Assembly: GCA_963781685.1 (NCBI GenBank)
Contig: CAWAGK010000017.1
Coordinates: forward strand, 108,110 to 172,109
DNA from: an uncultured Actinomycetota bacterium
GTDB lineage: Bacteria; Actinomycetota; Actinomycetes; Mycobacteriales; Mycobacteriaceae
Direction: 5' to 3'
Length of the DNA stretch: 64,000 nt
Part shown: one piece after another, positions 13,817-46,314 of the stretch
How the letters are laid out: every line of letters starts with the position of its first letter
Numbering within the stretch: position 1 is the stretch's first letter
Translations under genes and position numbers: made by a program
Notes under the pieces: generated by a model
Told to the model about the DNA's origin: nothing
What the model saw: the letters and a program-made list of their open reading frames with translations, nothing else
Database searches by the model: none

Positions 13817-13831
13817 GAGAATGCGCCTCTC
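13817..13831. promoter_or_regulatory. Putative operator, GAGAAT-N3-ATTCTC family
   Basis: GAGAATGCGCCTCTC (10/12) immediately upstream of the P450. Confidence 0.45.
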
Positions 13832-13896
13832 AGAGATGAGTATTAGGTTTCCACAGAGCAGGCCGCGACGTCAACGCGGCGCGGGAGCCCTGCGAG

Positions 13897-14403
13897 CTAG
13901 CCAGCCGGAATGAGGTCGGCCTCGACAGCTGCGAAGGCCATTACCCTGCTGCGGAACGTCTCGACCAGCCCGATCGAATCCAGCGGCATCGCCGCGGCCG
14001 CCAGGGCCTGCGCCTTGAACGCCTGGGCCGCGGCGCTGAGCCGGTGCTGGACCAGACCCACGCTGTCGTCCAGCTCGGCCGGCCACGTCTCACCCCACAA
14101 GGTGACTTCGGTGGCACCCTGGTCGAGCGCCTGCACGACGCCCTGCCGGACGCGCGAATCGCAGCCGAATAGGTCCGCCGCAGCGGCCAGGGTCTGGGGA
14201 GGCGGCCGGTGCCCCGCCGTTGCCAGTGCGTATTCCAGATCGACGATCTGGGCGCCGAGGATCTGCAGCGGTCGTTCGTCGGGGTGGTCGACGAGCAAGA
14301 CGGTGACGTCCCAGCCGGCCATCGCCCGGTCGAACAGCCAACCGCCGGCGAACTTCACCACATCGGCGACGTCCGCGGCGACCACGTCGAGCCGGTATCT
14401 CAT
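13897..14403 (-). CDS. Conserved hypothetical protein
   Basis: MRYRLDVVAADVADVVKFAGGWLFDRAMAGWDV...; ATG overlaps the TetR stop (ATGA). Confidence 0.75.
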   Translation of the reverse strand: MRYRLDVVAADVADVVKFAGGWLFDRAMAGWDVTVLLVDHPDERPLQILGAQIVDLEYALATAGHRPPPQTLAAAADLFGCDSRVRQGVVQALDQGATEVTLWGETWPAELDDSVGLVQHRLSAAAQAFKAQALAAAAMPLDSIGLVETFRSRVMAFAAVEADLIPAG

Positions 14404-15005
14404 ACCTGGCTCGGTGGTGCCATGTCCCGAGCCAACGATTCCGCGTATTCCTTGAAGACCTCGGTCAGTGGTATCGAGGGATTGATCAACCATGTGGTCT
14501 CCATTCCGGTGATGAAGGCAAGGATCTGCACTGCCTTGACGGTCACATCCATATCCATGCGATACCGGCCGGCCTGCTGACCTCGCCGGACGAGCTCGGT
14601 GATGATGTCGACCGCTCCCTGGTATCTGGCGGCGAGGCGGTCGTGCAGCGGTGCGTCAGGGTCGACGTTCTCCGCCAGCAGGACGGTGAACGTGCCCACC
14701 AGTTCGGGCGACCGATAGAACCGATCGGCGACCGCGGCGATCTCTGCGATCAGATCGCCGGCCCGGTCCGCGTGCGCGTCGTCATCGGCGTCGCGGACGT
14801 CGAGCACGGCGTGTAAAAGGTGTTCCTTGGATTCGAAGTGATGCAGCAGGCCGGCGGGGCTGACACCGGCTTCGCCGGCGATCTGGGCCAGCGTCGTATT
14901 GCGCCACCCGTTGCGGGTCAGCAGTCGCTGCGCGACGGCCAGGATCCGCTGTTTGCGGTCCTCACCCTTGGCGCGCAGCGAGTCATACGGCCGTGTCTCG
15001 GGCAC
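14400..15005 (-). CDS. TetR/AcrR family regulator
   Basis: HTH TTLAQIAGEAGVSPAGLLHHFESKE; GTG at 15005 with AAGGAG RBS. Confidence 0.93.
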   Translation of the reverse strand: MPETRPYDSLRAKGEDRKQRILAVAQRLLTRNGWRNTTLAQIAGEAGVSPAGLLHHFESKEHLLHAVLDVRDADDDAHADRAGDLIAEIAAVADRFYRSPELVGTFTVLLAENVDPDAPLHDRLAARYQGAVDIITELVRRGQQAGRYRMDMDVTVKAVQILAFITGMETTWLINPSIPLTEVFKEYAESLARDMAPPSQV

Positions 15006-15017
15006 CGGACTCCTTCG

Positions 15018-15055
15018 TCCAACCAACCAACTGAACACACAGTAGGTTGGTTGGA
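15018..15055. promoter_or_regulatory. 16-bp inverted repeat, likely TetR operator
   Basis: TCCAACCAACCAACTG-AACACA-CAGTAGGTTGGTTGGA (15/16 match) just upstream of the TetR start. Confidence 0.6.
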
Positions 15056-15086
15056 CGACTGTGACAAGGGTCGCATTTTGGCGCCT

Positions 15087-15123
15087 GGTTACAAACCAAG
15101 CGACTTGGCGATGATCACCTTCA
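15087..15123 (+). repeat. att site copy 1 (displaced 3' end of the acyl-CoA dehydrogenase gene)
   Basis: ACAAACCAAGCGACTTGGCGATGATCACCTTCA (15091-15123) identical to 22702-22734; minus strand encodes KVIIAKSLGL-TAA. Confidence 0.92.
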
Positions 15124-15292
15124 ACATCATCCTGGGCGTTGGTACCCGAAAACTGTGTTGGCTATTCGATAAACCCCCTGCTCAGACTGTTGGGCGCGTT
15201 GATCGCCGGAAGATGCCCGAAATTCTGCTGCGGACGATCTGCGGACGGTCCGGGGCGACGGCGCGGACCCGGCCGCCGATACCGTCCGATGG

Positions 15293-15717: not shown

Positions 15718-15953
15718 GACCGGCGATCGTACCCAGCTCAAGGTCGAGCCCTTGTCAGGATTGAACTCTCCTGATGGGCCTCAGGGGGAGCGTCAAAAGC
15801 CCTCTTAACAGGCATAATTCATCTCTACTGATCACTACAGATATCTGTAACTAAGGCCAAATTGTGGGCAATGTGGGCGGCGCTCAACTACAACCGCATT
15901 GATCCCGAGCGCGAGGTTTGTAGCCCAAGTGGAGCACCTCATGCAGCATGTCG

Positions 15954-16992: not shown

Positions 16993-17042
16993 CGATTGAC
17001 CTCTAGGATCCAGACTCCCGCCACTGTCTCAACTCGGACCAA

Positions 17043-27476: not shown

Positions 27477-28694
27477 GGGGTAGGCCAACCCGATGGCGCC
27501 CTGCACCCGCAGCGCGTCAATCTCGTTCTGCGATTTGCCGAGTTCCGCGAGCACCGCGTCGGTGTGCTGCCCGAGCCCGGGCACCGCGCCCATGGCGGGC
27601 TGGTAGCCGGAGATGACGGGCGGCGGCAGCAGGGCCGGAATCGACCCGGCCGACGTCTCGACCTGCCGCCACCGGTCCCGGGCCGCCAGCTGCGGGTGCA
27701 CGAGAACTTCGCTTGGCAGGTTGTACCGCGCGTTGCCGATCCCCGCGGCATCCGCTGTCTTCTGCACGTGTTCCAAGTCGTGTGCCGCGCACCAGGCGCC
27801 GATGGCGTCGTCCAAGATGCGCCGGTGAGCACACCGACCGGCGTTGCTGGCGAACCTCGGGTCGTCGGCAAGGTCGTCACGTTGCAGGATTTGACGCGAA
27901 AGTCGTTGCCATTCATTATCATTCGTCGTCCCCAGCACTACGGTCTGGCCGTCGGCGGTACGGTAGGCGCCATACGGCGCCACCGCGGGCGAACTCATTC
28001 CCAAGGGCTGCTGGTCGATTCCGGAATGTTGGGCGAAGGTGAGCGGGTAGCCCATCAGATCGGTCATCGTGTCGAACAAACTGACGGCCACAGTGTTGCC
28101 GTGCTGGCCCGTGGCCGACCCGGCATCGCGTGAATACAGCAGAGCCAAAATCGATATTGCCGAATACAACCCGGTGCTGATGTCCGCCATCGGCGGGCCG
28201 GGCTTGGCCGGTGCGCCGGGATGGCCGGTGACGGCGCAGGCGCCGGATTCGGCTTGCGCGAGCAGGTCGTAGGCACGTTTGTGCGAGAGCGGTCCGCCCG
28301 GGCCGTAGCCGTCGATTTCGACCGCGATCACGTCCGGGTGGCTTTCCGCCAGGTCCGCCGCGGCGATGCCCAATCGGGCGGTGGATCCTGGGGCGAGGTT
28401 GGAAACGAGTACGTCGGCACGGTCGAGAAGGCGACGCAGAATATCCAGCCCAGCTTCGGTTTTCAGGTTGAGGGTGACCGACTCCTTGCCCCGGTTGGCC
28501 CACACGAAGTGCGCGGCAAGCCCGTTGACGACGTCGTCGTAGTGCCGGGCGAAGTCTCCCCCGTTGGGGTTTTCCACTTTGATGACGCGTGCCCCGAAGT
28601 CGGCAAGCACGCGTGTGCACATCGGAGCGGAGACCGCCTGCTCCAGGGCCACCACGGTGACTCCCGTCAGCGGCCCCCCGGTTGCCGACATCAC
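27474..28694 (-). CDS. CoA-transferase family III (CaiB/BaiF)
   Basis: ALEQAVSAPMCTRVLADFGARVIKVE, NRGKES, AYDLLAQAESG. Confidence 0.93.
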   Translation of the reverse strand: MMSATGGPLTGVTVVALEQAVSAPMCTRVLADFGARVIKVENPNGGDFARHYDDVVNGLAAHFVWANRGKESVTLNLKTEAGLDILRRLLDRADVLVSNLAPGSTARLGIAAADLAESHPDVIAVEIDGYGPGGPLSHKRAYDLLAQAESGACAVTGHPGAPAKPGPPMADISTGLYSAISILALLYSRDAGSATGQHGNTVAVSLFDTMTDLMGYPLTFAQHSGIDQQPLGMSSPAVAPYGAYRTADGQTVVLGTTNDNEWQRLSRQILQRDDLADDPRFASNAGRCAHRRILDDAIGAWCAAHDLEHVQKTADAAGIGNARYNLPSEVLVHPQLAARDRWRQVETSAGSIPALLPPPVISGYQPAMGAVPGLGQHTDAVLAELGKSQNEIDALRVQGAIGLAYP

Positions 28695-29452
28695 ATCACC
28701 ATGCCGCCGTCCACCGGCAACACCTGACCGGTGATGTAGGAGGCGGCGTCCGACGCGAGAAAGACGAATGCGCCCGCGACCTCTTCGGGCTCGGCCCAGC
28801 GCTTCAACGGAATTCGAGCCATCATGTTGGCCGCGAATTTCTCGTTGGTACGAATGGTTTCGGTCATACGGGTCGCCGCCAGCGGCGCTAGCGCGTTAAC
28901 CAGAATGTTGTTGCGGGCCATCTCACGGGCCAATGACTTGGTGAATCCGATGATGCTGGCCTTGGCCGCCGAATAGTTCACCTGGCCGAGCGTGCCGGTG
29001 ATACCCGCTGACGAGACGACGTTGATGATGCGGCCAGTGCCATCGGTGGGTAGGAACTTCAGCGCGGCCTGAGCACAGTGAACGGCGCCCATCAGATGGA
29101 TGTCGAGCACCCGCTGGAAGCTTTCGTCGGTGAGATCGGCGAACATCCCCGGTGCCGTGACACCGGCGTTGTTGACCAGAATGTGCAACACACCCTCGGT
29201 GAGCCCGGCGGCGTGGGCGGCCGCAGCGTCCGCGGCTGCACGGTCTCGCACGTCCAGCGGGACACACTCCGCTTTGCCGCCGCTGGAGCAAATGCGTTCG
29301 GCGACAGCAGAAGCGGCGTCGGCATCGACGTCGCTGACGAGCACCGCGGCGCCGGCAGCGGCCAACGCATGTGCGACCGCCGCTCCGATCCCGCTGCCGG
29401 ATCCGGTGACCAATGCCGACCGTCCAGTCAGATCGAACACGGAGCGGCTCAT
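28691..29452 (-). CDS. SDR, FabG-like 3-oxoacyl reductase
   Basis: TGSGSGIG, NNAG, YSAAK, ITGQVLPVDGG. Confidence 0.93.
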   Translation of the reverse strand: MSRSVFDLTGRSALVTGSGSGIGAAVAHALAAAGAAVLVSDVDADAASAVAERICSSGGKAECVPLDVRDRAAADAAAAHAAGLTEGVLHILVNNAGVTAPGMFADLTDESFQRVLDIHLMGAVHCAQAALKFLPTDGTGRIINVVSSAGITGTLGQVNYSAAKASIIGFTKSLAREMARNNILVNALAPLAATRMTETIRTNEKFAANMMARIPLKRWAEPEEVAGAFVFLASDAASYITGQVLPVDGGMVM

Positions 29453-30618: not shown

Positions 30619-30666
30619 CCCACCGCCGGCCACTGCTCAATCTCCTTCGATCAGTTCAGTTACCGA

Positions 30667-30774
30667 CTTCCGGTGTCGGCCCGCTGCGCCCCGCTTCGCC
30701 GCGCTTGCAACCGCCACGGGCTTTCGGTGTCGGCCCGCTGCGCCCGGCTTCGCCGCGCTTGCGACCGCCACGTG
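30667..30774. repeat. 54-bp tandem repeat, 2 copies (mycobacterial VNTR/REP-like)
   Basis: CTT(C/T)CGGTGTCGGCCCGCTGCGCCC(C/G)GCTTCGCCGCGCTTGC(A/G)ACCGCCACG(G/T)G at 30667 and 30721. Confidence 0.9.
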
Positions 30775-30797
30775 CGCGCCCGGATTCCGGTGGCGCG

Positions 30798-32096
30798 TCA
30801 GTCCTTGTTGCCGGTCAGTTCTTTCGCGCTGGCGGCGAATTCCGCGAACGACGAACCCGACCTGGCGTCTTTGTGGTGGCTGAGGGCGCGGATCGAAACG
30901 TCGTGGCCCTCAGCGGCCTTGCGTAGCGCGCCCACGCTCGCCTGCGCCGGAGTGATGTGGCTGAACGGGTCGAACGAGTACCAGCGCATCGCGTTCTCAT
31001 GGGACATCTTCTTGATCTCGTCGTCCGGGACGTTGTTGATGGACAACACATCCCACAGCTCTTCGGGCGCGCCCGGCCACATCGAGTCGCTGTGCGGGTA
31101 GTCGGCCTCCCAGCAGATGTTGTCGATGCCGATCATGTTGCGCAACGCCACGCCGACCTTGTCGCTGATGAAGCAAGTCAGGAAGTGCTCGCGGAAGATG
31201 TCGCTGGGCAGCTTGCCCTTGAAGTCCTGATGCGTCCACGTCGAGTGCATCTCGTAGGTCCGGTCTGCCCGCTCCAGGAAATAAGGGATCCAGCCGGTGC
31301 CGCCCTCGGACAGCGCGACCTTGAGATCCGGGTACTCCTTGATTGGCCGCGACCACAGCAGATCCGCGGCGGCCTGCACGATGTTCATCGGCTGCAGGGT
31401 GATCATCACGTCCATCGGTGCATCGGGGGCGGTGATCGCCAGCCGTCCCGATGATCCGATGTGCACGTTCATCACGGTGTTGGTGTCGCACAACGCTTTC
31501 CACAGCGGATTCCAGTATTCGTTGTGGAAGCTCGGGTAGCCCATCGCGGCCGGGTTCTCGGTGAAGGTCAGCGCGTGCACGCCCTTCTTGGCCACCCGTC
31601 GCACCTCTTTGGCGCACTCCTCGGCGTCCCAGATCACGGGTATCGCCATCGGGATGAACCGTGCCGGGTAGGCACCACACCATTCGTCGATGTGCCAGTC
31701 GTTGTAGGCCTGCACCAGTGCTACCGAGAACTCTGGGTCCTCGGTGGCGAACAGGCGTCCGGCGAAACCGGGGAACGACGGGAAGCAGATCGAGGCCAGG
31801 ATGCCCCCGGCATTCATGTCCTTGATCCGCTCGTCGACGTTGTAGCAACCCGGCCGGATCTCGTCGAGGCCCTGCGGCTCGAGCCCGTACTCCTCTTTCG
31901 GGCGGCCGGCCACCGCGTTGAGCGCGACGTTGGGGATCACGGTGTCGCGGAACTGCCAGCAGTCGGAGCCGTCCGCGTTGTGCACCAGCCGCGGCGCGTC
32001 ATCGGCGTACTTCTTGGGCAGGTGGTTCTTAAACATGTCAGGTGGCTCAACGGTGTGGTCGTCGACGCTGATCAAAATCATGTCGTCTTTGTTCAC
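30798..32096 (-). CDS. Amidohydrolase family protein (amidohydro_2 type)
   Basis: ISVDDH, AYNDW, HIGSSG, SEGGTGWIP, WEADYPHSDS. Confidence 0.92.
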   Translation of the reverse strand: MNKDDMILISVDDHTVEPPDMFKNHLPKKYADDAPRLVHNADGSDCWQFRDTVIPNVALNAVAGRPKEEYGLEPQGLDEIRPGCYNVDERIKDMNAGGILASICFPSFPGFAGRLFATEDPEFSVALVQAYNDWHIDEWCGAYPARFIPMAIPVIWDAEECAKEVRRVAKKGVHALTFTENPAAMGYPSFHNEYWNPLWKALCDTNTVMNVHIGSSGRLAITAPDAPMDVMITLQPMNIVQAAADLLWSRPIKEYPDLKVALSEGGTGWIPYFLERADRTYEMHSTWTHQDFKGKLPSDIFREHFLTCFISDKVGVALRNMIGIDNICWEADYPHSDSMWPGAPEELWDVLSINNVPDDEIKKMSHENAMRWYSFDPFSHITPAQASVGALRKAAEGHDVSIRALSHHKDARSGSSFAEFAASAKELTGNKD

Positions 32097-32147
32097 TGGC
32101 CGTTCCTCTCCATCGGGGGTCGTTCGGCGGCCCGTTCGCTCAAATAT

Positions 32148-32331
32148 GAAAATTATCTTCTCTGATCGCGAGAATCAACATCTTCACGCTACCCCTGCCG
32201 GGGTTGGAGTCACGTCGGGGCAGCAGCACAGCTCGCACATGATGATGGCGTTTCCGCAGGTCGAGTGCAAAACATTGACCAATCCGCGAGTTCGTGGAAA
32301 CCTATTGGTCAAATATGAGAATATGATTCTC
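32148..32331. promoter_or_regulatory. Divergent promoter region with two GAGAAT-N3-ATTCTC operators
   Basis: GAAAATTATCTTCTC (32148-32162) and perfect GAGAATATGATTCTC (32317-32331), both preceded by TCAAATAT. Confidence 0.7.
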
Positions 32332-32348: not shown

Positions 32349-32885
32349 ATGCGTCTGTCCCCGTTGCCGGCGGACCAGTGGGACGACGCCGCGCGACAGT
32401 CGCTCGCCAGCCTGCTTCCCGAAGACCGCCGGAACGCGGGCGACGCAGGCAACCTGCTGAGCACGCTGGTGCGTCACCCCGATCTGTGTCGCGCATTTCT
32501 CCGGTTCAACGGATATCTGCTGATGAGCTCGACGCTGCCGGCGCGGGAGCGCGAGTTGATCATCCTGCGGGTCGCCCATCGCCGTAGCTGCGCTTACGAA
32601 TGGACTCACCACGTCAAGCTGGGGAAAAAGGCCGGACTCTCCGACGCGGACATCGCGGCGGTGCAGGCCGGTGACCCGACCGACGAATTCGACCGCGCGT
32701 TGCTGAACGCCGTCGACGAACTCGACGAAAAAAGCAACCTGTCGGATCAGACTTGGGCCGCGCTGTCCGAGCGGCTCGATGAGCGGCAACGAATGGACTT
32801 GATCTTCACCATAGGCGGCTACACCGCCCTCGCGATGGGCCTCAACACCTTCGGTGTCGAGGTCGAAGCTGACCGGAGAGACTGA
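32349..32885 (+). CDS. Carboxymuconolactone decarboxylase/AhpD-like protein
   Basis: LPARERELIILRVAHRRSCAYEWTHH. Confidence 0.88.
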   Translation: MRLSPLPADQWDDAARQSLASLLPEDRRNAGDAGNLLSTLVRHPDLCRAFLRFNGYLLMSSTLPARERELIILRVAHRRSCAYEWTHHVKLGKKAGLSDADIAAVQAGDPTDEFDRALLNAVDELDEKSNLSDQTWAALSERLDERQRMDLIFTIGGYTALAMGLNTFGVEVEADRRD

Positions 32886-32902
32886 AAGAAAGAGGTAGTA
32901 CC

Positions 32903-34183
32903 TTGCCGCACTTCCCTAAACCAGCCGCTGGCAGCTGGACGGAAAACTACCCGGAATTGGGCACTGCACCGGTCGATTACACCGACTCCATCGATCCGGC
33001 GTTCTTCGAGGCCGAGCGCAACGCGATCTTCAAGAAGACGTGGCTCAACGTCGGTCGAGTCGAGCGGCTGCCGCGCACCGGCAGCTACTTCACCAAGGAG
33101 CTGCCGTCGGCGGGCCCGGGCATGTCGGTGATCGTCGTCAAGACCAAGGACGGGGCGATCAAGGCGTATCACAACGTCTGCCGTCACCGCGGAAACAAGT
33201 TGGTTTGGAACGACTTTCCGCATGAGGAGACCTCGGGCACCTGCCGGCAGTTCACCTGCAAGTACCACGCGTGGCGCTACAGCCTCGACGGCGACCTGAC
33301 CTTCATCCAGCAGGAGGATGAGTTCTTCGACGTCGACAAGAGCCAATTCGGCCTGGTTCCCGTGCGTTGCGAGTTGTGGGAAGGGTTCATCTTCATCAAC
33401 TTCGACCAACACGCCAAGCCGCTCACCGACTACCTCGGGCCGCTGGCCAAGGGCATCGAGGGCTACCCCTTCCACGAGATGACCGAGACGTACTCCTACC
33501 GTGCTGAGGTCGGCAGCAACTGGAAGCTGTTCATGGACGCCTTCGCGGAGTTCTACCACGCGCCGGTGTTGCACCAGGGGCAGTACACCAAGGAAGAAGC
33601 CGCCAAGATCATGAAATACGGCTTCGAGGCGCTCTACTACGAGATGGCAAGTCCGCACGCGATGATCTCGACTTGGGGCGGTCAGGCGCCGCCCGTGGAC
33701 ATGTCGATGGTGAAGCCGACGGACCAGGTGCTGCGCAGCGGGCTGTTTGGCCCCTGGGACAAGCCGGAAGTTATCGAGAAGCTCACCGAACTGCCGCCGG
33801 GGGTGAACCCGAAGAAGGTGCCGCAGTGGGGGATCGACGAGTGGCACTTCTACCCGAACTTCATGCTGCTGATCTGGGAGCCGGGCTGGTTCCTGACCTA
33901 TCACTACTGGCCGACCGCCGTCGACAAGCACATCTTCGAGTGCACGCTGTATTTCGTTCCGCCGCGCGATGCGCGGGAGCGCTTGGCCCAGGAGCTGGCG
34001 GCGGTGACGTTCAAGGAGTACGCGCTTCAGGATGCGAACACGCTGGAAGCAACCCAGACCATGATCGGCACCAAGGTCGTCACCGACTTCCTGCTATGCG
34101 ATCAGGAGATCATGCTGCGCCATCTGCACAAAGTGACCGGTGACTACGTGAAGGAGTACCAGAACAATGGCGCTACCGTCTGA
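32903..34183 (+). CDS. Rieske non-heme iron oxygenase alpha subunit
   Basis: CRHRG...CKYHAW Rieske ligands; NWK...EFYHAPVLH and QDA iron ligands. Confidence 0.95.
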   Translation: MPHFPKPAAGSWTENYPELGTAPVDYTDSIDPAFFEAERNAIFKKTWLNVGRVERLPRTGSYFTKELPSAGPGMSVIVVKTKDGAIKAYHNVCRHRGNKLVWNDFPHEETSGTCRQFTCKYHAWRYSLDGDLTFIQQEDEFFDVDKSQFGLVPVRCELWEGFIFINFDQHAKPLTDYLGPLAKGIEGYPFHEMTETYSYRAEVGSNWKLFMDAFAEFYHAPVLHQGQYTKEEAAKIMKYGFEALYYEMASPHAMISTWGGQAPPVDMSMVKPTDQVLRSGLFGPWDKPEVIEKLTELPPGVNPKKVPQWGIDEWHFYPNFMLLIWEPGWFLTYHYWPTAVDKHIFECTLYFVPPRDARERLAQELAAVTFKEYALQDANTLEATQTMIGTKVVTDFLLCDQEIMLRHLHKVTGDYVKEYQNNGATV

Positions 34184-34490
34184 ATTCGCTGACCTGGAGC
34201 CCTTTTTGGAGTGGGACCTGGCCACCGAACCCGAGCGCTATGCCAAGCGGCTGGCCTCGTCGATGGCCGAGATGCAGACCTTCTACGACGTCGCGTTCCC
34301 GCGCCTGAACGACGTGATCACCTACTGCGACAAGCACCGCCTAGACGATCTGCCCGAGGACGCGCGGACCCTCATGCACCTGATGCAGTCGCTGATCATG
34401 GTGTCGTTTCCGATTGAAGCGTGGAAGCAGCCGCGCGTCCCCGACAGCGGCGCGGCCTGGGTCGAATTGACCAGGGAGCCGGTGATTTAA
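34167..34490 (+). CDS. Conserved hypothetical protein (107 aa)
   Basis: Overlaps the Rieske gene 3' end; coherent ORF in an operon. Confidence 0.8.
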   Translation: MALPSEFADLEPFLEWDLATEPERYAKRLASSMAEMQTFYDVAFPRLNDVITYCDKHRLDDLPEDARTLMHLMQSLIMVSFPIEAWKQPRVPDSGAAWVELTREPVI

Positions 34491-34493
34491 GCG

Positions 34494-35717
34494 GTGCTGA
34501 CGCTTAAGGCAGCCGGCCTGCTCGACGTCGACGCGGGCGAGATCGTACGGCCGGGCATCCTTCGGATCGAAGAAGATCGGATCGTTGGCGTCGGCGAGGG
34601 CCCGCAGGGCACGGAAAGTGAAGTCATCGACCTCGGGGATTCGATCTTGCTGCCCGGTTTGATGGACATGGAGGTCAACCTGCTGATGGGCGGGCGCGGG
34701 GAGAAGCCCGGGCTGTCCCAGGTCCAGGACGACCCGCCGACCCGGATGTTGCGCGCGGTCGGCAACGCCCGCCGGACGCTGCGTGCGGGGTTCACCACGG
34801 TGCGCAACCTCGGCCTGTTCGTCAAGACCGGCGGCTATCTGCTGGACGTCGCGCTGGGAAAGGCCATCGACGCCGGCTGGATCGACGGCCCGCGCGTGGT
34901 ACCCGCGGGCCATGCGATCACCCCGACCGGCGGGCATCTGGACCCGACCATGTTCGCCGCGTTCGCCCCGCATGTGCTCGACCTGACCGTCGAAGAGGGC
35001 ATCGCCAACGGAATCGACGAGATCCGCAAGGCGGTGCGGTATCAGATCAAGCACGGCGCCGAGCTGATCAAGGTCTGCTGCTCGGGCGGTGTGATGTCGC
35101 TGACCGGCCCGCCTGGCGCGCAACACTATTCGGATGAGGAGCTGCGGGCGATCGTCGACGAGGCGCACCGACGCGGGCTGAGGGTCGCCGCGCACACGCA
35201 TGGCGCCGACGCCGTCAAACACGCGGTCGAAGCTGGCATCGACTGCATCGAGCACGGGTTTCTGATCGACGACGAGGCGATCGCGATGATGGTCGAGCAC
35301 GGCACCTTCCTGGTCTCGACCCGGCGTCTGGCGGAGGGAATGGACGTCTCGCACGCCCCGCCCGAACTGCAGGCCAAGGCCGCCGAGATGTTCCCGAAGT
35401 CGCGGACCTCGATACTGGCCGCCTACGAGGCCGGGGTGAAGATCGCGGTGGGCACCGACGCGCCCGCAATCCCGCATGGCCGCAACGCCGACGAACTTGT
35501 CACCCTGGTCGATTGGGGCCTGCCGCCGCTGGCGGTATTGCGGGCGGCGACGACCACGGCCGCAGACTTGATCAACGCCACCGATCGCGGCCGGCTGGCC
35601 GAGGGACTGCTCGCCGACGTCATCGCCGTCCCCGGAGACCCGTTGTCCGACATCGGCGTTACCCAGAAGGTGGGCTTCGTGATGAAGGGAGGCAAGGTCT
35701 ATGCCAGAACGAATTGA
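34494..35717 (+). CDS. Metal-dependent amidohydrolase (Xaa-Pro dipeptidase-like clade)
   Basis: AGFTTVRN, IKVC, AAHTHG, CIEHG, GTDA; the first motif reads PGLMDMEVN. Confidence 0.9.
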   Translation: MLTLKAAGLLDVDAGEIVRPGILRIEEDRIVGVGEGPQGTESEVIDLGDSILLPGLMDMEVNLLMGGRGEKPGLSQVQDDPPTRMLRAVGNARRTLRAGFTTVRNLGLFVKTGGYLLDVALGKAIDAGWIDGPRVVPAGHAITPTGGHLDPTMFAAFAPHVLDLTVEEGIANGIDEIRKAVRYQIKHGAELIKVCCSGGVMSLTGPPGAQHYSDEELRAIVDEAHRRGLRVAAHTHGADAVKHAVEAGIDCIEHGFLIDDEAIAMMVEHGTFLVSTRRLAEGMDVSHAPPELQAKAAEMFPKSRTSILAAYEAGVKIAVGTDAPAIPHGRNADELVTLVDWGLPPLAVLRAATTTAADLINATDRGRLAEGLLADVIAVPGDPLSDIGVTQKVGFVMKGGKVYARTN

Positions 35718-36120
35718 GGACCTGGTCGAGATCCAGCAGCTACTGGCGCGCTACGCCGTGACCATCACGCAGCAGGACATCGACGGGCTGGTCAAAGTCT
35801 TCACGCCCGACGGCACCTACAGCGCTTTCGGCGAAACCTATTCGCTGGAACGGTTTCCCGTGCTGGTGGACGCCGCGCCCAAGGGATTGTTCATGACGGC
35901 CACCCCGGTAATCGAGCTGGACGGCGACACCGCAACCGGCACCCAACCGCTGTGCTTCATCGACCACGCCAGCCATGACATGCGGATCGGCTATTACAAC
36001 GACACCTATGTGCGGACCGACGACGGCTGGCGGTTGAAAACCCGTGCCATGACGTTTATTCGGCGCAGTGGCGCCCACGACTCGGGCCGTCCGCACGCGA
36101 TAGGACGCCCACCTGCATGA
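35701..36120 (+). CDS. NTF2/SnoaL-like protein
   Basis: IQQLLARYA...VFTPDG...GYYNDTYVRTDDGWR. Confidence 0.88.
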   Translation: MPERIEDLVEIQQLLARYAVTITQQDIDGLVKVFTPDGTYSAFGETYSLERFPVLVDAAPKGLFMTATPVIELDGDTATGTQPLCFIDHASHDMRIGYYNDTYVRTDDGWRLKTRAMTFIRRSGAHDSGRPHAIGRPPA

Positions 36121-37205
36121 AGGTCGACCAGTTCCGTTCGGACCTGCGGGCCTGGCTCGACGAGCACGACCTGACCCCCGGGCCGGACCACTCGCTGGAA
36201 GGCCACATCACGCAACTCGCCCGCGTCCATTCCGCGCTTTATGACGCGGGCTGGATGCGATACGGCTGGCCCGAACATGTCGGCGGATTGGGCGGGCCGG
36301 CAATGCTTCGCGCGATCGTCGGCGAGGAGGTGGTCGGCCGTCGTCTTGCCGAGCCGGGCCCCTATTCGATGGTCGAGGTGCTCGCGCCGACCATGATCGA
36401 TTACGCGCCAGCAGAACTCGCAGCGGAGATGGTACCGCGGCTACTCAGTGGTCGCGAACAGTGGTGTCAAGGCTTTTCCGAGCCCGGCTCCGGCAGCGAC
36501 CTGGCGTCGCTGACCACGCGCGCCGCCCCGCACGGCGACAACTGGATTGTCAACGGGCAGAAGGTCTGGACCAGCTACGCGCAGTATTCGACACGTTGTG
36601 TCCTGCTCACCCGCACCGCACCTGGCTACGATGGCATCACGGCGTTCTTCGTCGACCTGGACACGCCGGGCATCACCATTCGGCCGCTGCGCACAATGCA
36701 CGGAGTCGACGAGTTCTGCGAGGTCTACTTCGACGATGTAGTGATCCCCGCGGCACGCATGCTCGGCCGGCCCGGAGACGGCTGGCGGCTGGCGATGGAT
36801 TTGCTGCCCTACGAGCGCTCCACCTGCTTCTGGCAGCGGATCGCCTACCTCTATGCACGATTCGACGAAGTCATCGCGGAAGCAGCCGACCCCGACGAAT
36901 ACGAGCTCGGCGCAGCCTATATCGCGCTGCACACCCTGCGCTGCCGGTCTCGGGCCACCCAACACCGGCTGGCCGACGGGGAGCCACTCGGGCCGCAGAC
37001 ATCGATTGACAAAGTCTTGCTGGCCACCGCCGAGCAGCGGCTCTACGACACCGTTCGCGACCTGCTGCCCGGCACCATCGAGTTGGACGACACGCCATGG
37101 CGATCCGAGTACCTCTACTCGCGCGCGGCAACCATCTACGGCGGCACTGCGGAGATCCAGCGCAACATCATCGCGCGCCGGCTGTTGGATCTGGGCAAGG
37201 AGTGA
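36117..37205 (+). CDS. Acyl-CoA dehydrogenase (alpha-type subunit)
   Basis: WCQGFSEPGSGSDLASL, NGQKVWTS, TIYGGTAEIQR. Confidence 0.93.
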   Translation: MKVDQFRSDLRAWLDEHDLTPGPDHSLEGHITQLARVHSALYDAGWMRYGWPEHVGGLGGPAMLRAIVGEEVVGRRLAEPGPYSMVEVLAPTMIDYAPAELAAEMVPRLLSGREQWCQGFSEPGSGSDLASLTTRAAPHGDNWIVNGQKVWTSYAQYSTRCVLLTRTAPGYDGITAFFVDLDTPGITIRPLRTMHGVDEFCEVYFDDVVIPAARMLGRPGDGWRLAMDLLPYERSTCFWQRIAYLYARFDEVIAEAADPDEYELGAAYIALHTLRCRSRATQHRLADGEPLGPQTSIDKVLLATAEQRLYDTVRDLLPGTIELDDTPWRSEYLYSRAATIYGGTAEIQRNIIARRLLDLGKE

Positions 37206-37999
37206 GCGTGGATACCGAATCCTTGCACCTGCTGGAAGACGCCTTACAGAAGACCATGAGCGCGGCGTCGGGTCGCGAACTCGATGCGGCCCTGACGGAG
37301 TTGGGCTGGCTCGAAATGCTCGACGAAATGCCGGAAATCGCAATTCCGTTGGTATTTCGGCTGCTCGGCGAGACAGGCGCCCACGCGCCCGTGCTCAACG
37401 ATGTCGTGCTGCGCGCCGCCGGACGCGACGGCGGGGGTACCGTCCCGCTGCCGTACGCGGGTGGCTCGTGGGTCGTTTGGGACCGCGCCGAGCGGGCCGG
37501 CTCGGCGCTGGGCGACGACCTACCGATACATCGGGTATCGCAGGGAGATCCGGTGCCGCTCGCCGCGGGCCGGCACGCGCTCGGCTGGTGGCTAGTCGGC
37601 GCCGGCCGCGCCATGCTGGCGCTGGCGCGCCAACATGCCTTGGACCGTGTGCAATTCGGTAAGCCCGTCGCCTCGTTCCAGGCGATCCGGCATCGGCTGG
37701 CCGAGACGTTGGTCGCTGTCGAGGGCGCGGAGGCGACCCTGGTTGCCGCCGCCGCCGAGCCCGACGACCTGAGCTTTCTGCTCGCCAAGGCTGCGGCCGG
37801 CCAGGCGGCGTTGATCGCCGCGCGGCACTGTCAGCAGGTGCTCGGCGGTATCGGGTTCACCGCGGAGCATGAGTTGCATCGTCATGTGAAGCGTTCGCTG
37901 GTCTTGGATGGAATGCTGGGCAGTGCACGCGAACTCACCCGAGAGGCGGGAGCGACGCTGCGCGCCAAGCGGTTTGCGCCGCGACTGGCTAATCTCTAA
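37202..37999 (+). CDS. Short acyl-CoA dehydrogenase-like protein (beta-type partner)
   Basis: GTG overlaps the upstream stop; retains RVQFGKPVASFQAIRH and QVLGGIGFT, lacks the N-terminal FAD motifs. Confidence 0.88.
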   Translation: MSVDTESLHLLEDALQKTMSAASGRELDAALTELGWLEMLDEMPEIAIPLVFRLLGETGAHAPVLNDVVLRAAGRDGGGTVPLPYAGGSWVVWDRAERAGSALGDDLPIHRVSQGDPVPLAAGRHALGWWLVGAGRAMLALARQHALDRVQFGKPVASFQAIRHRLAETLVAVEGAEATLVAAAAEPDDLSFLLAKAAAGQAALIAARHCQQVLGGIGFTAEHELHRHVKRSLVLDGMLGSARELTREAGATLRAKRFAPRLANL

Positions 38000-38259: not shown

Positions 38260-38296
38260 GAGAATAGTATTCTCGTGGCGAGAAAGTTACAATCTC
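38260..38296. promoter_or_regulatory. GAGAAT-N3-ATTCTC operator(s) upstream of TetR
   Basis: Perfect GAGAATAGTATTCTC (38260-38274) plus degenerate GAAAGTTACAATCTC (38282-38296). Confidence 0.72.
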
Positions 38297-39088: not shown

Positions 39089-39962
39089 GTGCCCGACCTC
39101 TGGACCGATCTGCTGGGTTGTCTGCAGCTGCGCGCCCAGGACGGTGAGCGGTCCGACGCCCAAGACGTCTCGGTGTTCGGAGGGCGCTAACCAACATCTG
39201 AATTACCACCGGTTGTTTGGCGGCCAACTCCTGGCGCAGTTCATCCGTGCCGCGTCCGCGGTCTGTCCCGACAAGGCCGTCAAATCGCTGCACGCCGTCT
39301 TCGCCAAGGAAGGCCGGGCCGACGACCCGGTCCAGTACCAGGTGATGCGGCAGCACGAGGGCCGCTCATTCGCGACCTTGACGATCACCGCCAGCCAACC
39401 GCGAGGTGTGTTGGCCACCAGCTCAGTGAGCATGCACATCGCCGAGGACGGCCCCGCGCACCAGAGCACCGAGGCCGTTCCGGCGCTGTTGGACGAAAAG
39501 TACCGCGCCGAACTGGATCTCATCCCATGGGAGACACGCTGCGCCGATGACCTCAACGCGTCGAGTGCCGGCCCACCGCAACTCGAAGTGTGGATGCGCA
39601 CCCCCGCTGTGGGCGGCGAGCTGGCGCCCGCGCTGGCCGCCTACGCCACCGACCTCACGCTCATCGGAACCGCGCTTCGTCCCCTCGAAGGTTTCAACCA
39701 CCGTGGTAACGGCACCCTGTTCTCCTCGGCGGTCACCTCCCACACCATCTGGTTCCATCAACCATTCCGCACCGATCGCTGGCTACTGCTGCGTCAGCAC
39801 AGTCCGATGCTGGCGCACGGCCGCTGCTTCGGTCGTGGCGACGTCCTCACCGAGGATGGCTCGCTGGTCGCGTCCTACGCGCAAGAGGCGCTGCTGCGCT
39901 TCCGCGACGCCGGCGATCAAGACGTTAGAGCGTTCGCATATCGCACATCACGCGCCCGATGA
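39089..39962 (+). pseudogene. Acyl-CoA thioesterase II (TesB-like), +1 frameshift near 39179
   Basis: GTG 39089 VPDLWTDLLGCL...SVF, extra G, then EGANQHLNYHRLFGGQLLAQ in the next frame; could be a sequencing error. Confidence 0.75.
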
Positions 39963-39975
39963 GAGCTATATTCTC
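39961..39975. promoter_or_regulatory. Putative operator, GAGAAT-N3-ATTCTC family
   Basis: GAGAGCTATATTCTC (10/12) plus half-site GAGAAT at 39983, upstream of the SDR pair. Confidence 0.55.
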
Positions 39976-40170: not shown

Positions 40171-41019
40171 ATGGCGGGTCGAGTCGAAGGCAAGGTCGCG
40201 TTCATCACCGGTGCGGCCCGTGGACAGGGCCGCTCGCACGCGGTGCGGTTGGCGCAGGAGGGCGCCGACATCATTGCGGTCGATATCTGTAAGCCAATCC
40301 GCGACGGCGTTACGGACACCGCGATCCCGGCCTCGACGCCGGAGGACCTGGCCGAGACCGCCGACCTCGTCAAGGGCCACAACCGCCGAATCTTCACCGC
40401 CGAAGTCGATGTGCGCGACTACGACGCCCTGAAGGCTGCGCTGGACAACGGCGTTGAGCAGCTCGGCCGGCTTGACATCATCGTGGCCAACGCGGGTATC
40501 GGCAACGGCGGGGACACTCTGGACAAAACCAGCGAAGAAGACTGGACAGAGATGATCGACATCAACCTGGCCGGGGTGTGGAAGACCGTGAAAGCCGGTG
40601 TGCCGCATCTACTCGCGGGCGGCCAGGGCGGTTCGATCATCCTGACCAGCTCGGTCGGCGGACTCAAGGCCTACCCGCACACCGGCCACTACGTCGCAGC
40701 CAAGCACGGAGTCGTCGGGCTTATGCGTGCATTCGCAGTTGAGTTGGGGCAGCACATGATTCGGGTTAACTCGGTGCACCCCACACACGTCAAGACTCCC
40801 ATGCTGCACAACGAAGGCACCTTCAAGATGTTCCGCCCTGATCTGGAAAATCCCGGACCGGACGACATGGCGCCGATCTGTCAGATGTTCCACACCCTGC
40901 CGATTCCGTGGGTGGAGCCGGTAGACGTCAGCAATGCGGTGCTGTTCTTGGCATCCGATGAGGCGCGCTACGTCACGGGTGTCACCCTCCCGATCGACGC
41001 GGGTGGCTGCCTGAAATAG
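40171..41019 (+). CDS. Mycofactocin-coupled-type SDR oxidoreductase
   Basis: GKVAFITGAARGQGRSHAVRLAQEGADIIAVDIC, YVAAKHG. Confidence 0.92.
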   Translation: MAGRVEGKVAFITGAARGQGRSHAVRLAQEGADIIAVDICKPIRDGVTDTAIPASTPEDLAETADLVKGHNRRIFTAEVDVRDYDALKAALDNGVEQLGRLDIIVANAGIGNGGDTLDKTSEEDWTEMIDINLAGVWKTVKAGVPHLLAGGQGGSIILTSSVGGLKAYPHTGHYVAAKHGVVGLMRAFAVELGQHMIRVNSVHPTHVKTPMLHNEGTFKMFRPDLENPGPDDMAPICQMFHTLPIPWVEPVDVSNAVLFLASDEARYVTGVTLPIDAGGCLK

Positions 41020-41073
41020 CCGGCAAGGGGCCGTCGCCGACCGGGTTGCGACCATGGGTTAACGTCGGGCGGC

Positions 41074-41910
41074 ATGGACCATTTCGAAGGGAAAGCTGCC
41101 GTCGTCACCGGCGGTGCGAGTGGTATCGGGTTCGCCACTGCCACCGAGTTGGCTCGCCGTGGAGCACGTGTTGTGCTCGCCGACGTCGACAAGCCCGGGC
41201 TGGAACGGGCGGTGGCCCACTTGCATGGTCAGGGATTTGACGCGCACGCGGTGATGTGCGACGTCCGACAGCTGGACGAGATGGTTCACCTGGCGGACGA
41301 AGCATTTCGCCTCCTGGGCCAAGTCGACATTGTCTTCAGCAATGCGGGCATTGTGGTCGCAGGCCCGATCGCACAGATGACGCACGAGGACTGGCGTTGG
41401 GTGATCGACATTGATCTGTGGGGCAACATCCATGCCGTCGAGGCGTTCTTGCCGAGGCTGCTCGAGCAAGGTACGGGCGGCCACATCGCCTTCACCGCAT
41501 CGTTTGCCGGGCTGGTGCCCAACGTCGGCCTCGGGGCCTACAGCGTTGCGAAATACGGCGTCGTCAGCCTGGCCGAAACGCTGGCCCGCGAGGTCAAAGA
41601 CCACGGCATCGGTGTGTCGGTGCTGTGCCCGATGGTCGTCGAAACCAAACTGGTCTCCAACTCGGAACGGATCCGCGGCGCCGATTACGGCCTGGAATCA
41701 ACGGCGGTCGTGACGGAGGGGCCGGGGCCGGCTCCTTCCCAGGAGGACACCCTCAGCGTCGATGAGGTCGCCCGTCTCACCGCCGATGCGATTGTGGCCG
41801 ACCGCCTGTACGTGCTGCCACACGGGGCGGCGCGTGCCTCAATTCGCCGCAGGTTCGAGCGGATTGACCACACGTTCGACGATCAGGCCGCCGACGGCTG
41901 GAGTCACTAG
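41074..41910 (+). CDS. SDR oxidoreductase
   Basis: TGGASGIG, SNAG, YSVAK. Confidence 0.92.
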   Translation: MDHFEGKAAVVTGGASGIGFATATELARRGARVVLADVDKPGLERAVAHLHGQGFDAHAVMCDVRQLDEMVHLADEAFRLLGQVDIVFSNAGIVVAGPIAQMTHEDWRWVIDIDLWGNIHAVEAFLPRLLEQGTGGHIAFTASFAGLVPNVGLGAYSVAKYGVVSLAETLAREVKDHGIGVSVLCPMVVETKLVSNSERIRGADYGLESTAVVTEGPGPAPSQEDTLSVDEVARLTADAIVADRLYVLPHGAARASIRRRFERIDHTFDDQAADGWSH

Positions 41911-41917
41911 CTAGCCG

Positions 41918-43744: not shown

Positions 43745-43852
43745 CGGCGCTACTCCTCCTCATCGCTTCGCATTGGGTTGCCCGACTCCTCCTCGCCCCG
43801 CTTCGCGGGGTGCATCGTCGTCGGGCGCTGCATCGTCGTCAGCGCGCGCCAT
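43742..43852 (-). repeat. Composite (nested) MIRU-type intergenic repeat
   Basis: GACGACGATGCA occurs twice and GAGGAGGAG twice between the two M24 genes. Confidence 0.7.
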
Positions 43853-45086
43853 ACGGGTGATAGGGGTAGTTGGTCAACGGAATCCAGCCTTCCTCGGTGA
43901 TGACGACAATCTCTTCGCTGCGATAGCCGCCGGTGCCGTCTTCCCACACGACCGGTTCCAGCACCACCACCATTCCTGGCTCGAAAACGAAGTTCTCGTC
44001 GAACTCGTCGCCGAGATCGGTGCCGATCATTGGCATTTCGGCGGCATTGACCCCGATTCCATGCCCCAGATAGAAGTGCGGTAGCCACGGTCGGGTGCCG
44101 CCGTTGGCTTTTGTTGCCGCCCTGCCCAACTCGGCTGCGGTGGCGCCGGCTCGCGTGACGTCGAGCACGGCGTCCATGATTTCCCGCCACTTGTCGAATT
44201 GCGCTTGCTGGCGCGGCGTCGGGTCTTGGCCAACAACCCAGGTGCGGCCGAAATCAGAGCAGTAGCCGGCATAGGTGATGCTGACGTCGGTCCACAGCAC
44301 GTCACCGGCACGCAGTTCACGCTCGGTCGTCAACAGCGGCAACGCCAGATCACCGTGGGTGGTCCAGACACCGTCTTCCTTGCTCGGTGGCATCACCTGC
44401 CAGATCGGCTCCAGCATGCTGGCCATCGCGCCGAGCTCGAAGGCGCGGCGCATGAAGCCGGCCGACAGGTCGATCTGGCGAATCCCGGGTGCCAGCGCGG
44501 CCTGCACATCGACCATCGCTTCGTCGGTGATCCGGCACGCGGTGCGCATACAAGACAGCTCGTCGGGAGTCTTGATGAGCTTGGCCGCCCCGACAATCTG
44601 CGCCGCGTCGGCGGGCCGCCCGGACGGGAAGAGTCGCGCCTGCGCACGGCACATCGCACCGGTGAGTTCGTCCACCGCGAGCACCGCCCCGGACGGGACC
44701 AGATCATCGACCACCCGCGCGAAGCTCTCCACGCCCTCGTCGAACTCCAGATACACCGGGCCGTGCAGGTGGTCGGCCGGCAGCCCCGATTCCGATGCGG
44801 CCCCTTCACGGAACGGCAAGAAAAGGTGCGGATACGGGTCGTCTGCGAGCACCACCGCGACCGGGCGCTCGACGTAAGACAAACCGGCGTCACCCAGTGG
44901 CCAGCTCACCCCGGTGGCGTAGACGACGCTGTTATTTCCAAGCAGGATCAGGGCATCCAGGCCTCGGTCGGCCATCGCCGACCGCAGCCGCGCGCCGGTC
45001 TCGCGACGCATCCGATCGAGATCGGGTGTATCCGGGATGTCGAGCGCCGACGCGGGTGCGGCCAGGAACGAAGTGGGCGAAGTCAT
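43839..45086 (-). CDS. M24 family metallopeptidase
   Basis: WTDVS...YCSDFGRT, LGHGIG, LEP, RSEE: full D/D/H/E/E ligand set. Confidence 0.92.
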   Translation of the reverse strand: MTSPTSFLAAPASALDIPDTPDLDRMRRETGARLRSAMADRGLDALILLGNNSVVYATGVSWPLGDAGLSYVERPVAVVLADDPYPHLFLPFREGAASESGLPADHLHGPVYLEFDEGVESFARVVDDLVPSGAVLAVDELTGAMCRAQARLFPSGRPADAAQIVGAAKLIKTPDELSCMRTACRITDEAMVDVQAALAPGIRQIDLSAGFMRRAFELGAMASMLEPIWQVMPPSKEDGVWTTHGDLALPLLTTERELRAGDVLWTDVSITYAGYCSDFGRTWVVGQDPTPRQQAQFDKWREIMDAVLDVTRAGATAAELGRAATKANGGTRPWLPHFYLGHGIGVNAAEMPMIGTDLGDEFDENFVFEPGMVVVLEPVVWEDGTGGYRSEEIVVITEEGWIPLTNYPYHPYGAR

Positions 45087-45094
45087 TGGGTCCC

Positions 45095-46267
45095 CTACAG
45101 ACCAAGGAATTTGGTGATGTTACCGCTGACGATCTGCGCGGCCGCCTGGGGACCGACCGCATCGACCACCGAGGCCAACGACTTCTCCGAATAACCGAAG
45201 GTGCTTTCGTTGTGCGGGTAGTCGCTGGACCACATCACCTTGTCGACGCCGATCTGGTCGATCAACTTAAGTCCGAGCGGGTCGACCATGAACGATGCGC
45301 TCATGTGGTTGTCCCAGTAGTAGCGCACGTCGTGCTCCAGGGGCCGATTGAACATGTGCTGGTATGACGCAACCAGGTGCTCGGCGTCCTGCAAAGCCCA
45401 AGGCACCCAAGCGATTCCGCCTTCGAACCAGCCGATCCGCAGACTCGGGTGATCGTCGAGGATCCCGGAGAAGAGGTACTTGGCGAATTGTTCGCGGAAT
45501 CCGTCGATGTTGATCATCATGCCGACCACGACGCTGTTGTACTGGCACGGGGTCTTCGGCGGGGTCTCGCCGATGTGGTGGGCCACCGGAAGTCCGGCGG
45601 CTTCGATCTCGTCCCAGACCGGTTTCATCGCGGTGCTGCCGTAGTCGATGATGTTGCCCTCGTCGTCCTTGCCCGGATTCAGCGGCAACAGGAAAGTCCT
45701 GAGCCCCAAAGACTTCAACTCGGCCAGTGTCCGTTTGGTGCCTTCCGGATCCCACCAGTTGATCAGGCCCGCACCGTAGAAGTGGCCGTTGGAACGCTCC
45801 TGCAACTCGGCGATGTACTCGTTGTAGATGCGGAACGCGAGCTCGCGAAGCTGTTTGTCCGGGTAGTGGAACAGCGCCAGGATCGCGTTCGGGAACGCCA
45901 GCTCCTTCTCGACGCCGTCCTCGCGCAGCTCCTGAATCCGGGCCTCGATGTTGGTGCTCGCGGCCCCGGGCAGGTCGTCGTACTGCATCAGCACCGCGCT
46001 GAAGTCGCCCGGCAGGAAGGACTGTCCTTTGCGTCCGACCTGGTAGGCGCCGTCCTCGTACCAGATCCGCGGCGCCTTTTCTTTGAGCTCGTCCGGGAAT
46101 CGTTCGTAGAAGATGTCGGCGGCCAGCGAAATGTGATTGTCCGCAGAGAAAACCACGGTTCCTTCCGGCAGGCCGACGTTGGCGCCGTTGGCGCGACCGT
46201 GTCGATCCTTGGGTGCGCCAAACCCACCGGGCGGGTAGAGCGAGGCGGTGCTTGTTTGAGGCGACAT
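45095..46267 (-). CDS. Amidohydrolase family protein
   Basis: SADNH, IYNEY, HHIGE, FEGGIAW, WSSDYPHNES. Confidence 0.92.
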   Translation of the reverse strand: MSPQTSTASLYPPGGFGAPKDRHGRANGANVGLPEGTVVFSADNHISLAADIFYERFPDELKEKAPRIWYEDGAYQVGRKGQSFLPGDFSAVLMQYDDLPGAASTNIEARIQELREDGVEKELAFPNAILALFHYPDKQLRELAFRIYNEYIAELQERSNGHFYGAGLINWWDPEGTKRTLAELKSLGLRTFLLPLNPGKDDEGNIIDYGSTAMKPVWDEIEAAGLPVAHHIGETPPKTPCQYNSVVVGMMINIDGFREQFAKYLFSGILDDHPSLRIGWFEGGIAWVPWALQDAEHLVASYQHMFNRPLEHDVRYYWDNHMSASFMVDPLGLKLIDQIGVDKVMWSSDYPHNESTFGYSEKSLASVVDAVGPQAAAQIVSGNITKFLGL

Positions 46268-46299
46268 CAATGGCCCTCCAATCGGATCCATGTTCGTTC

Positions 46300-46314
46300 G
46301 AGAGTAGTTATCTC
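46300..46314. promoter_or_regulatory. Putative operator, GAGAAT-N3-ATTCTC family
   Basis: GAGAGTAGTTATCTC (9/12) in the short gap upstream of the amidohydrolase-M24 operon. Confidence 0.45.

Follow-up and report, generated by a model that had tools for sequence, protein, structure and literature searches.

What does a short palindrome, GAGAAT-N3-ATTCTC, do in front of a series of otherwise unrelated enzyme genes, and which protein reads it? These questions are raised by a 64,000-nucleotide stretch of a Mycobacterium genome (hereafter the window; contig C17:108110-172109 of a 6.16-Mb genome, G000, with 64% G+C), for which a first-pass annotation had proposed that the TetR-family regulator encoded at 38331, here called TetR-A, autoregulates and controls one uncharacterised catabolic regulon. 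Our analysis supports this proposal through conserved operator positions and through the co-occurrence of palindrome and regulator across genomes. On this comparative evidence we consider it likely that GAGAAT-N3-ATTCTC serves as the TetR-A operator, both for its own gene and for at least 12 promoters of a single catabolic regulon, which includes a second gene island on contig C4 and, in this genome, an mce lipid-transporter operon.

The same annotation had listed perfect copies of the palindrome at 32317 and 38260 and considered such recurrence unlikely by chance; both points were borne out. None of 100 shuffles of the window produced a perfect palindrome, and matches with at most two mismatches numbered six against 1.28 expected. 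In the whole genome there are seven perfect and five one-mismatch palindromes, where an estimate from base composition gives about 0.06 perfect copies. As a control, we counted all 60 letter orderings of the half-site genome-wide in the same 6-3-6 dyad: 58 of the 59 alternatives never occur and one occurs once, against seven times for GAGAAT, and a reversed control pattern had no copies in all but one of approximately 280 genomes searched. Five of the seven perfect copies fall inside 109 kb of C17 that includes the window (p ~2e-5). Once over-long starts of open reading frames (ORFs) were corrected, all seven were promoter-proximal, the apparently intragenic sites coming to lie in front of the true starts of over-extended ORFs. 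Given these numbers, it is hardly credible that the copies arose by chance or as leftovers of a small repeat or a mobile element. Such an origin would suit the copy at 46300, as well as an in-gene match with at most two mismatches at 5965, which is probably chance since 1.28 such matches are expected, but the sequences flanking the copies are dissimilar to one another and their positions are conserved in orthologous promoters across genera, which refutes a chance or repeat origin for the five accepted sites of the window (13817, 32148, 32317, 38260 and 39961). GAGAAT-N3-ATTCTC is real and deeply conserved, and most likely a DNA switch.

The palindrome holds a fixed place in front of the TetR-A gene, where the perfect copy at 38260 is designated O1. 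In 80 of 80 Mycobacterium species loci, obtained by TetR-A protein similarity, the site begins 70-79 bp before the TetR ATG; 79 of these are perfect dyads, and the usual form is GAGAATA[G/C]TATTCTC. TetR-A orthologues in eight other genera (58-79% identical) have the dyad upstream in 17 of 20 loci, usually with a second one downstream. Across the 80 distinct Mycobacterium sequences, the strongest conserved block of the TetR upstream region runs from O1 through a weak second palindrome, O2 (GAGAAAGTTACAATCTC), and a weak site at an offset of 19-22 bp recurs, with changed sequence, in the TetR promoters of the other genera. O2 would act either as a -10 element or as a second operator, and its spacing from O1 points to a pair of dimers bound to the same DNA face, which would together cover the stretch from -35 to -10.

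A position matrix computed from the best sites has conserved outer hexamers, favours A and T at the two adjoining positions and is uninformative in the flanks, giving GAGAATA-N-TATTCTC as the best operator form. The AT-rich centre raises the question of whether the motif might mainly be a promoter element, namely a palindromic -10 with a TA-N-TAT core for a particular sigma factor, or else an activator site. The mycobacterial -10 pattern is TANNNT, which the cores TAGTAT, TACTAT and TATGAT fit, and many sites lie 19-30 bp before start codons. We nevertheless regard this explanation as very unlikely. It is the outer GAGAAT/ATTCTC dyad that is conserved while the centre varies, which marks a dimeric helix-turn-helix protein rather than a sigma factor; in the TetR promoter a separate conserved TACAAT follows the site; and, to our knowledge, TetR-family proteins are nearly always repressors. 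A two-hexamer promoter scan of two promoter regions, which used an E. coli-type pattern, returned nothing for or against, so that we infer the -10 assignments made here.

TetR-A is a protein of a single TetR_N domain, an N-terminal TetR-type helix-turn-helix. Its AlphaFold model (mean predicted local distance difference test score, pLDDT, of 77) has the all-helical TetR fold with 10 helices, and a Foldseek search with this model gave 243 matches in the PDB at E <= 0.001, the top 50 all being TetR-family regulators. By both sequence and fold its closest structures are generic TetR proteins, with the acyl-CoA (acyl-coenzyme A)-binding FadR and FasR among the best; a PDB sequence search found no close relative (best E-value 4e-7). 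The protein carries a conserved N-terminal extension of about 50 residues (38331-38480). In the model residues 1-27 form a disordered tail, and helix 1, spanning residues 31-66, is long. The stretch from residue 29 to 56, basic and helical, does not vary in 45 homologues; such a feature is unusual in the TetR family. The basic N-terminal part of helix 1 may add DNA contacts. In the 20 loci of the other genera, identity over residues 29-110 is 83-95%, apart from one distant paralogue with 62%, and none of the 20 departs from SLRSFYL in the core of the recognition helix. This near-constancy of the DNA-binding part across genera matches the constancy of the half-site.

Regulator and palindrome also travel together. 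Among 251 genomes of the family, from 34 genera, 56 have TetR-A; 55 of these contain one perfect site or more, 51 contain two or more, and the mean is 5.1. The 195 genomes lacking TetR-A contain no perfect site in 180 cases, one in 14 and two in a single case, and the division is repeated within single genera where both kinds of genome occur. The M. tuberculosis genome (G507, recognised by 16 IS6110 primer matches) has no TetR-A orthologue, its best match being 28% identical (E = 4e-6), and no palindrome even when one mismatch is allowed, which probably explains why the system is absent from the literature on M. tuberculosis regulators. The data show the motif to be non-random, promoter-located, conserved in position across species and genera, and co-occurring with TetR-A.

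From these comparisons TetR-A is most likely the reader of the palindrome, and it is the best candidate available. Several observations weigh against this view and the regulon built on it. Three of the 20 TetR-A orthologues from other genera are without a detectable site, and genome G191 has TetR-A with no perfect site. Conversely, G029 has seven perfect sites and another regulator gene, TetR-B, with no TetR-A found in its 91%-complete assembly (loci L182-L185); among the genomes sampled from the genus, no other clearly departs from the co-occurrence. Co-occurrence would, moreover, also be expected if TetR-A merely belonged to an island regulated by another protein. The structural likeness to FadR is generic for the TetR fold (template modelling, TM, scores of 0.5-0.67 with 13-20% identity), and, within the DNA examined, the link between operator and mce operon is seen in only six of 29 orthologous loci (this genome and five relatives). 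In the other 23 the CoA-transferase gene that precedes mce lies inside a longer operon whose promoter is beyond that DNA.

Might another regulator, then, read the palindrome, with TetR-A as only one of its targets? Besides the content of G029 and the inability of co-occurrence to distinguish a regulator from a co-inherited island gene, TetR-B would recommend itself by its position in a site-bearing island and by a recognition helix resembling that of TetR-A (LSTRAFYRHF vs QSLRSFYLQF); for the IclR regulator gene at 62512 there is a perfect site, GAGAATCAGATTCTC, in the orthologous hydrolase/IclR gap of G024, one of two other species with complete genomes that we used for comparison (the other being G034); and the reader could also be an unlinked factor. 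We judge this unlikely. TetR-B was rejected as a general reader: no more than 15 of 36 genus genomes have it, 15 of the 30 that bear the motif do without it, and its own promoter has no conserved site, with even a weak upstream site in only two of 21 TetR-B loci. The IclR-side site of the present genome is degenerate, the G029 assembly is incomplete, and no gene but TetR-A has a fixed-position site in orthologue after orthologue across nine genera. The two further TetR genes of the window (14400-15038 and 47807-48490) were also considered and set aside, neither having such a site nearby.

With TetR-A as the preferred reader, we infer binding, repression rather than activation, promoter overlap and the nature of inducer and substrate along the following lines. 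A TetR-A dimer would bind each palindrome. The sites, 19-70 bp before start codons, are predicted to lie on or beside -10-like hexamers, so that a bound repressor would block RNA polymerase. At its own promoter TetR-A would act through two sites separated by two helical turns, the strong O1 and the weaker O2; elsewhere the centre of the operator itself (TAGTAT, TACTAT or TATGAT, 19-30 bp before the start codon) may be the -10, and the dimer would then occlude the polymerase. In this way TetR-A would repress its own gene and at least a dozen promoters of one catabolic regulon, until a pathway intermediate released it. As CoA-dependent enzymes dominate the regulon, a thioesterase gene stands in the TetR operon and FadR and FasR are neighbours of TetR-A, this effector would most likely be an acyl-CoA thioester. 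The thioesterase gene, of the acyl-CoA thioesterase II-like type, is probably co-transcribed with TetR-A.

The features concerned are collected in the table below. Acyl-CoA dehydrogenase is abbreviated there and in the text as ACAD, short-chain dehydrogenase as SDR and the carboxymuconolactone decarboxylase family as CMD.

Table. Operator sites, genes and operons in the window (window positions) and in the rest of the genome (contig positions). Scores are those of the position matrix.
Feature	Position	Strand	Remarks
Cytochrome P450 and overlapping 62-residue 3Fe-4S-type ferredoxin	12331..13805	-	PF00067
Weak operator GAGAATGCGCCTCTC	13817..13831		12 bp before annotated P450 start (minus strand); score 12
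Second weak palindrome-like element, reverse complement GGAAACCTAATACTC	13838..13852		21 bp from the 13817 site
Amidohydrolase_2, ACAD, SDR, CoA-transferase III, enoyl-CoA hydratase operon	26615..32096	-	Pfam
Weak operator GAAAATTATCTTCTC	32148..32162		52 bp before amidohydrolase_2 start (minus strand); score 17.5
Perfect operator GAGAATATGATTCTC	32317..32331		Ends 18 bp before CMD start codon; centre TATGAT is -10-like
CMD, Rieske oxygenase alpha subunit, 107-residue orphan, amidohydrolase_1, SnoaL-like, ACAD pair operon	32349..37999	+	Pfam; ORFs tightly packed or overlapping
Operator O1, perfect palindrome GAGAATAGTATTCTC	38260..38274		Starts 71 bp before TetR ATG
Weak second palindrome O2 GAGAAAGTTACAATCTC	38280..38296	+	20-22 bp centre to centre from O1; contains -10-like TACAAT
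TetR-family regulator TetR-A, 239 residues	38331..39050	+	PF00440, 30.9 bits vs cut-off 24, residues 56-101
Acyl-CoA thioesterase II-like gene	39144..39962	+	Pfam 4HBT_3C, Acyl_CoA_thio, 4HBT_3; directly after TetR gene
Weak operator GAGAGCTATATTCTC	39961..39975		2 mismatches; ~200 bp before SDR pair; score 13.6
Two SDR oxidoreductase genes	40171..41910	+	Pfam; first is mycofactocin-coupled; PRK05876, 524 bits vs cut-off 338
Rejected 9/12 match GAGAGTAGTTATCTC	46300..46314		3 mismatches; score 8.9
Very weak candidate site GGAAATTTTGTTCTC	62369..62383		Score 9.3; absent from the first-pass list
Amidohydrolase_2 and two acyl-CoA synthetases	C17, 71-181 kb		Site-bearing, outside window
Mce-associated-type membrane protein	C17, 71-181 kb		Site-bearing, outside window
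CoA-transferase then full mce operon, divergent from SDR	C17, 71-181 kb		Site-bearing, outside window
ACAD pair	C17, 71-181 kb		Site-bearing, outside window
Further amidohydrolase_2	C17, 71-181 kb		Site-bearing, outside window
Acyl-CoA ligase divergent from phthalate-dioxygenase-type reductase	C17, 71-181 kb		Site-bearing, outside window
mce operon of the CoA-transferase row above, two MlaE permeases and six Mce proteins	C17:86567-97440		10-21 kb before window; after family III CoA-transferase
Second island	C4:832661-848904		Sites 834830, 838741, 846600; own TetR-B at 835681-836337
Hydratase-ACAD, hydratase, SDR-Rieske (second island)	C4, 834-847 kb		Matrix hits
Phosphotransferase-SDR-ACAD operon	C4:345 kb		Matrix hit before operon

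Besides the perfect copies, near copies had been proposed at 13817, 32148, 39961 and 46300, all described as intergenic and in front of operon starts. The first three, each with two mismatches, stood up and the fourth did not: to judge from orthologous promoters, which keep the position and often hold a stronger site, the weak sites at 13817, 32148 and 39961 are real. Like the perfect pair, they are intergenic and precede gene starts. Of 21 orthologous P450 promoters (>=67% identity), 13 retain the 13817 site at -25 to -31; it is stronger in more distant orthologues (scores 15-23) and is perfect in G024 and G034; its neighbouring palindrome-like element is represented by GGAAATNNAATACTC, which recurs at -46 to -52 in nine orthologous P450 promoters. 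At the equivalent place of the 32148 site, three to four close relatives carry GAAAATTA[GT]CTTCTC, and G034 has a perfect site in front of the orthologous ACAD-SDR-CoA transferase genes. The CMD orthologue is preceded by a site at -32 to -59 in eight of 11 gene-bearing loci, and also in G034. Nearly all of the 80 orthologous TetR-A loci have a counterpart of the 39961 site, often perfect, after TetR (~+770) or after TetR and thioesterase (~+1640), the thioesterase gene being present in the part of the loci with the latter spacing. The first SDR gene behind this site (40171-41019) matches TIGR03971 with 393.6 bits against a cut-off of 300, and this mycofactocin-coupled enzyme links the regulon to the mycofactocin redox system. 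The gene labels given earlier were correct throughout, including the P450-ferredoxin pair, in which a 62-residue ORF (12331-12519), bearing a Cys motif and overlapping the stop codon of the P450, encodes the ferredoxin.

The copy at 46300 lies in a 44-bp gap between same-strand genes for a P450 (46335-47588) and an amidohydrolase_2 (45095-46291), and its assignment as operator of an amidohydrolase-M24 operon is unsupported. Of 24 homologous loci, 21 lack it in this gap, and it is probably chance; of the other three, the window itself and a near-identical relative carry the copy, and one has a different weak match.

A regulon spanning more than 32 kb had been suggested. The regulon stands, but this span is too small: taking matrix hits scoring at least 16 before genes, sites begin approximately 36 kb ahead of the window and end 8 kb beyond it, with the C4 island in addition. 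Two operator-like sites, at C17:97559 and 97727, occupy the divergent gap between the CoA-transferase-mce operon and an SDR gene. Orthologous promoters had been named as a check, and there the sites are conserved, with the same operons carrying perfect sites in G024 and G034. In G024, sites are additionally found before a MeaB-type GTPase operon and in the hydrolase/IclR gap. The MeaB-type GTPase gene, of the acyl-CoA mutase chaperone family, lies about 3 kb after our window (C17:175207-176286); the G024 copy (locus L213) has a perfect site, and in this genome no site scoring 12 or more precedes the gene. This promoter is an example of site turnover within the regulon.

Taken together, the regulon encodes P450s with ferredoxin, Rieske oxygenases with a phthalate-dioxygenase-type reductase, several amidohydrolase_2 proteins, paired ACADs, SDRs (one mycofactocin-coupled), enoyl-CoA hydratases, a thiolase, CoA transferases, CoA ligases, CMD and SnoaL-like proteins. 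Such a set of genes suggests that a bulky hydrophobic acid is degraded oxidatively via CoA esters, with Mce uptake included. Most likely, the island serves lipid- or terpenoid-like breakdown in non-tuberculous mycobacteria and is tied into one regulon by the palindrome. A bolder version, which we offer tentatively and consider rather doubtful as a whole, would see in TetR-A and GAGAATA-N-TATTCTC a third master switch of the KstR kind in the Mycobacteriaceae, one that nine genera possess and M. tuberculosis has lost. It would govern an undescribed pathway for a bulky hydrophobic substrate that some species take up by an orphan Mce transporter, and its steps would comprise oxygenation by Rieske and P450 enzymes, alcohol oxidation dependent on mycofactocin, reactions of amidohydrolase_2 enzymes and, in relatives, a carbon rearrangement of the B12-mutase type; the operator would serve at the same time as the -10, and the unchanging basic N-terminal helix extension would read its AT-rich centre.

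How does this system compare with known ones? KstR (Rv3574) and KstR2 (Rv3557c) of Mycobacterium and Rhodococcus are self-regulated TetR repressors, as TetR-A is proposed to be, with a short palindrome before many operons of one lipid/steroid-type catabolic pathway, with P450s, a Rieske oxygenase and reductase, paired ACADs, hydratases, CoA ligases and an mce transporter in the regulon, a very highly conserved regulator sequence and, as is likely here, an acyl-CoA intermediate as effector. A many-operon regulon of this type including an mce transporter is found here by Pfam assignment, the mce link being confined to the present genome and five relatives. The KstR and KstR2 boxes, however, are TnnAACnnGTTnnA and AnCAAGnnCTTGnT, unlike GAGAAT-N3-ATTCTC; M. 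tuberculosis, which encodes both KstR proteins, has no TetR-A orthologue, as its distant best match shows, and lacks the system altogether. The TetR-A regulon is also distinguished by its wealth of amidohydrolase_2, by CMD and the mycofactocin-coupled SDR and, in relatives, by the MeaB-type GTPase operon. Since the M. tuberculosis orthologue is missing and the box differs, TetR-A would work like KstR and KstR2 but is a member of neither group.

FadR (Bacillus FadR/YsiA and Thermus FadR) and M. tuberculosis FasR, which are among the best sequence and fold neighbours of TetR-A and control CoA-dependent lipid metabolism, differ from it in their low identity (13-20%, as above), in their operator and in lacking the conserved extension of about 50 residues. 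With respect to an acyl-CoA-binding pocket, FadR structures rank among the top fold matches of TetR-A, at TM scores of 0.5-0.6. TetR-A falls below the cut-offs of the curated NCBIfam models for FadR/FasR (NF053878, 26.3 bits against 200; NF053731, 29.1 against 330). Mce3R (Rv1963c), the repressor of the mce3 operon and neighbouring lipid genes, is likewise of the TetR type and linked to an mce operon and beta-oxidation-like genes. It has about 400 residues in two TetR modules, and its binding sites are complex rather than simple palindromes (PMC4482099), whereas TetR-A is a single module of 239 residues with a simple 15-bp dyad. By analogy with the arm of SimR, residues 31-50 of TetR-A, which form a basic and conserved lengthening of helix 1, could touch the AT-rich centre of the operator, and, as with SimR and QacR, the O1-O2 pair at 22 bp could bind two dimers.

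The palindrome would be an ordinary kind of switch, KstR-like and not a new mechanism, for which we found no prior description: a full-text literature search returned no description of the box or of TetR-A. A survey of mycobacterial TetR regulators covered divergently oriented TetRs only and printed its motifs as images (PMC4482099). Judging by the names in the collections searched, M. marinum, M. kansasii, M. gordonae, M. szulgai and M. asiaticum are among the species with the regulator, and named orthologues are also found in Mycolicibacterium species. Should TetR-A prove to be the reader, dozens of catabolic genes now called 'hypothetical' in environmental and opportunistic mycobacteria would come together as one functional unit under a single regulator and its 15-bp box, and the box would provide a ready-made regulon definition together with a handle on the substrate of an orphan pathway and its orphan Mce transporter. 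That M. tuberculosis has lost regulator and box alike marks this pathway as belonging to the environmental lifestyle that the tubercle bacillus gave up.

Three smaller features of the window deserve mention. The very weak candidate at 62369 lies between an alpha/beta hydrolase gene on the minus strand and the IclR gene on the plus strand, the latter being followed by a gene for an FAD-binding oxidoreductase of the KstD-type family. Downstream of the 32148 site, a PE-PPE domain gene (25177-26595) on the opposite strand interrupts an apparent beta-oxidation operon (hydratase, thiolase, ACAD). Finally, the same 5' flank, TCAAATAT, occurs on the same strand at 32142-32149 and at 32311-32318, 169 bp apart; this is unexpected for a symmetric operator and may reflect a duplication or an extended asymmetric contact.

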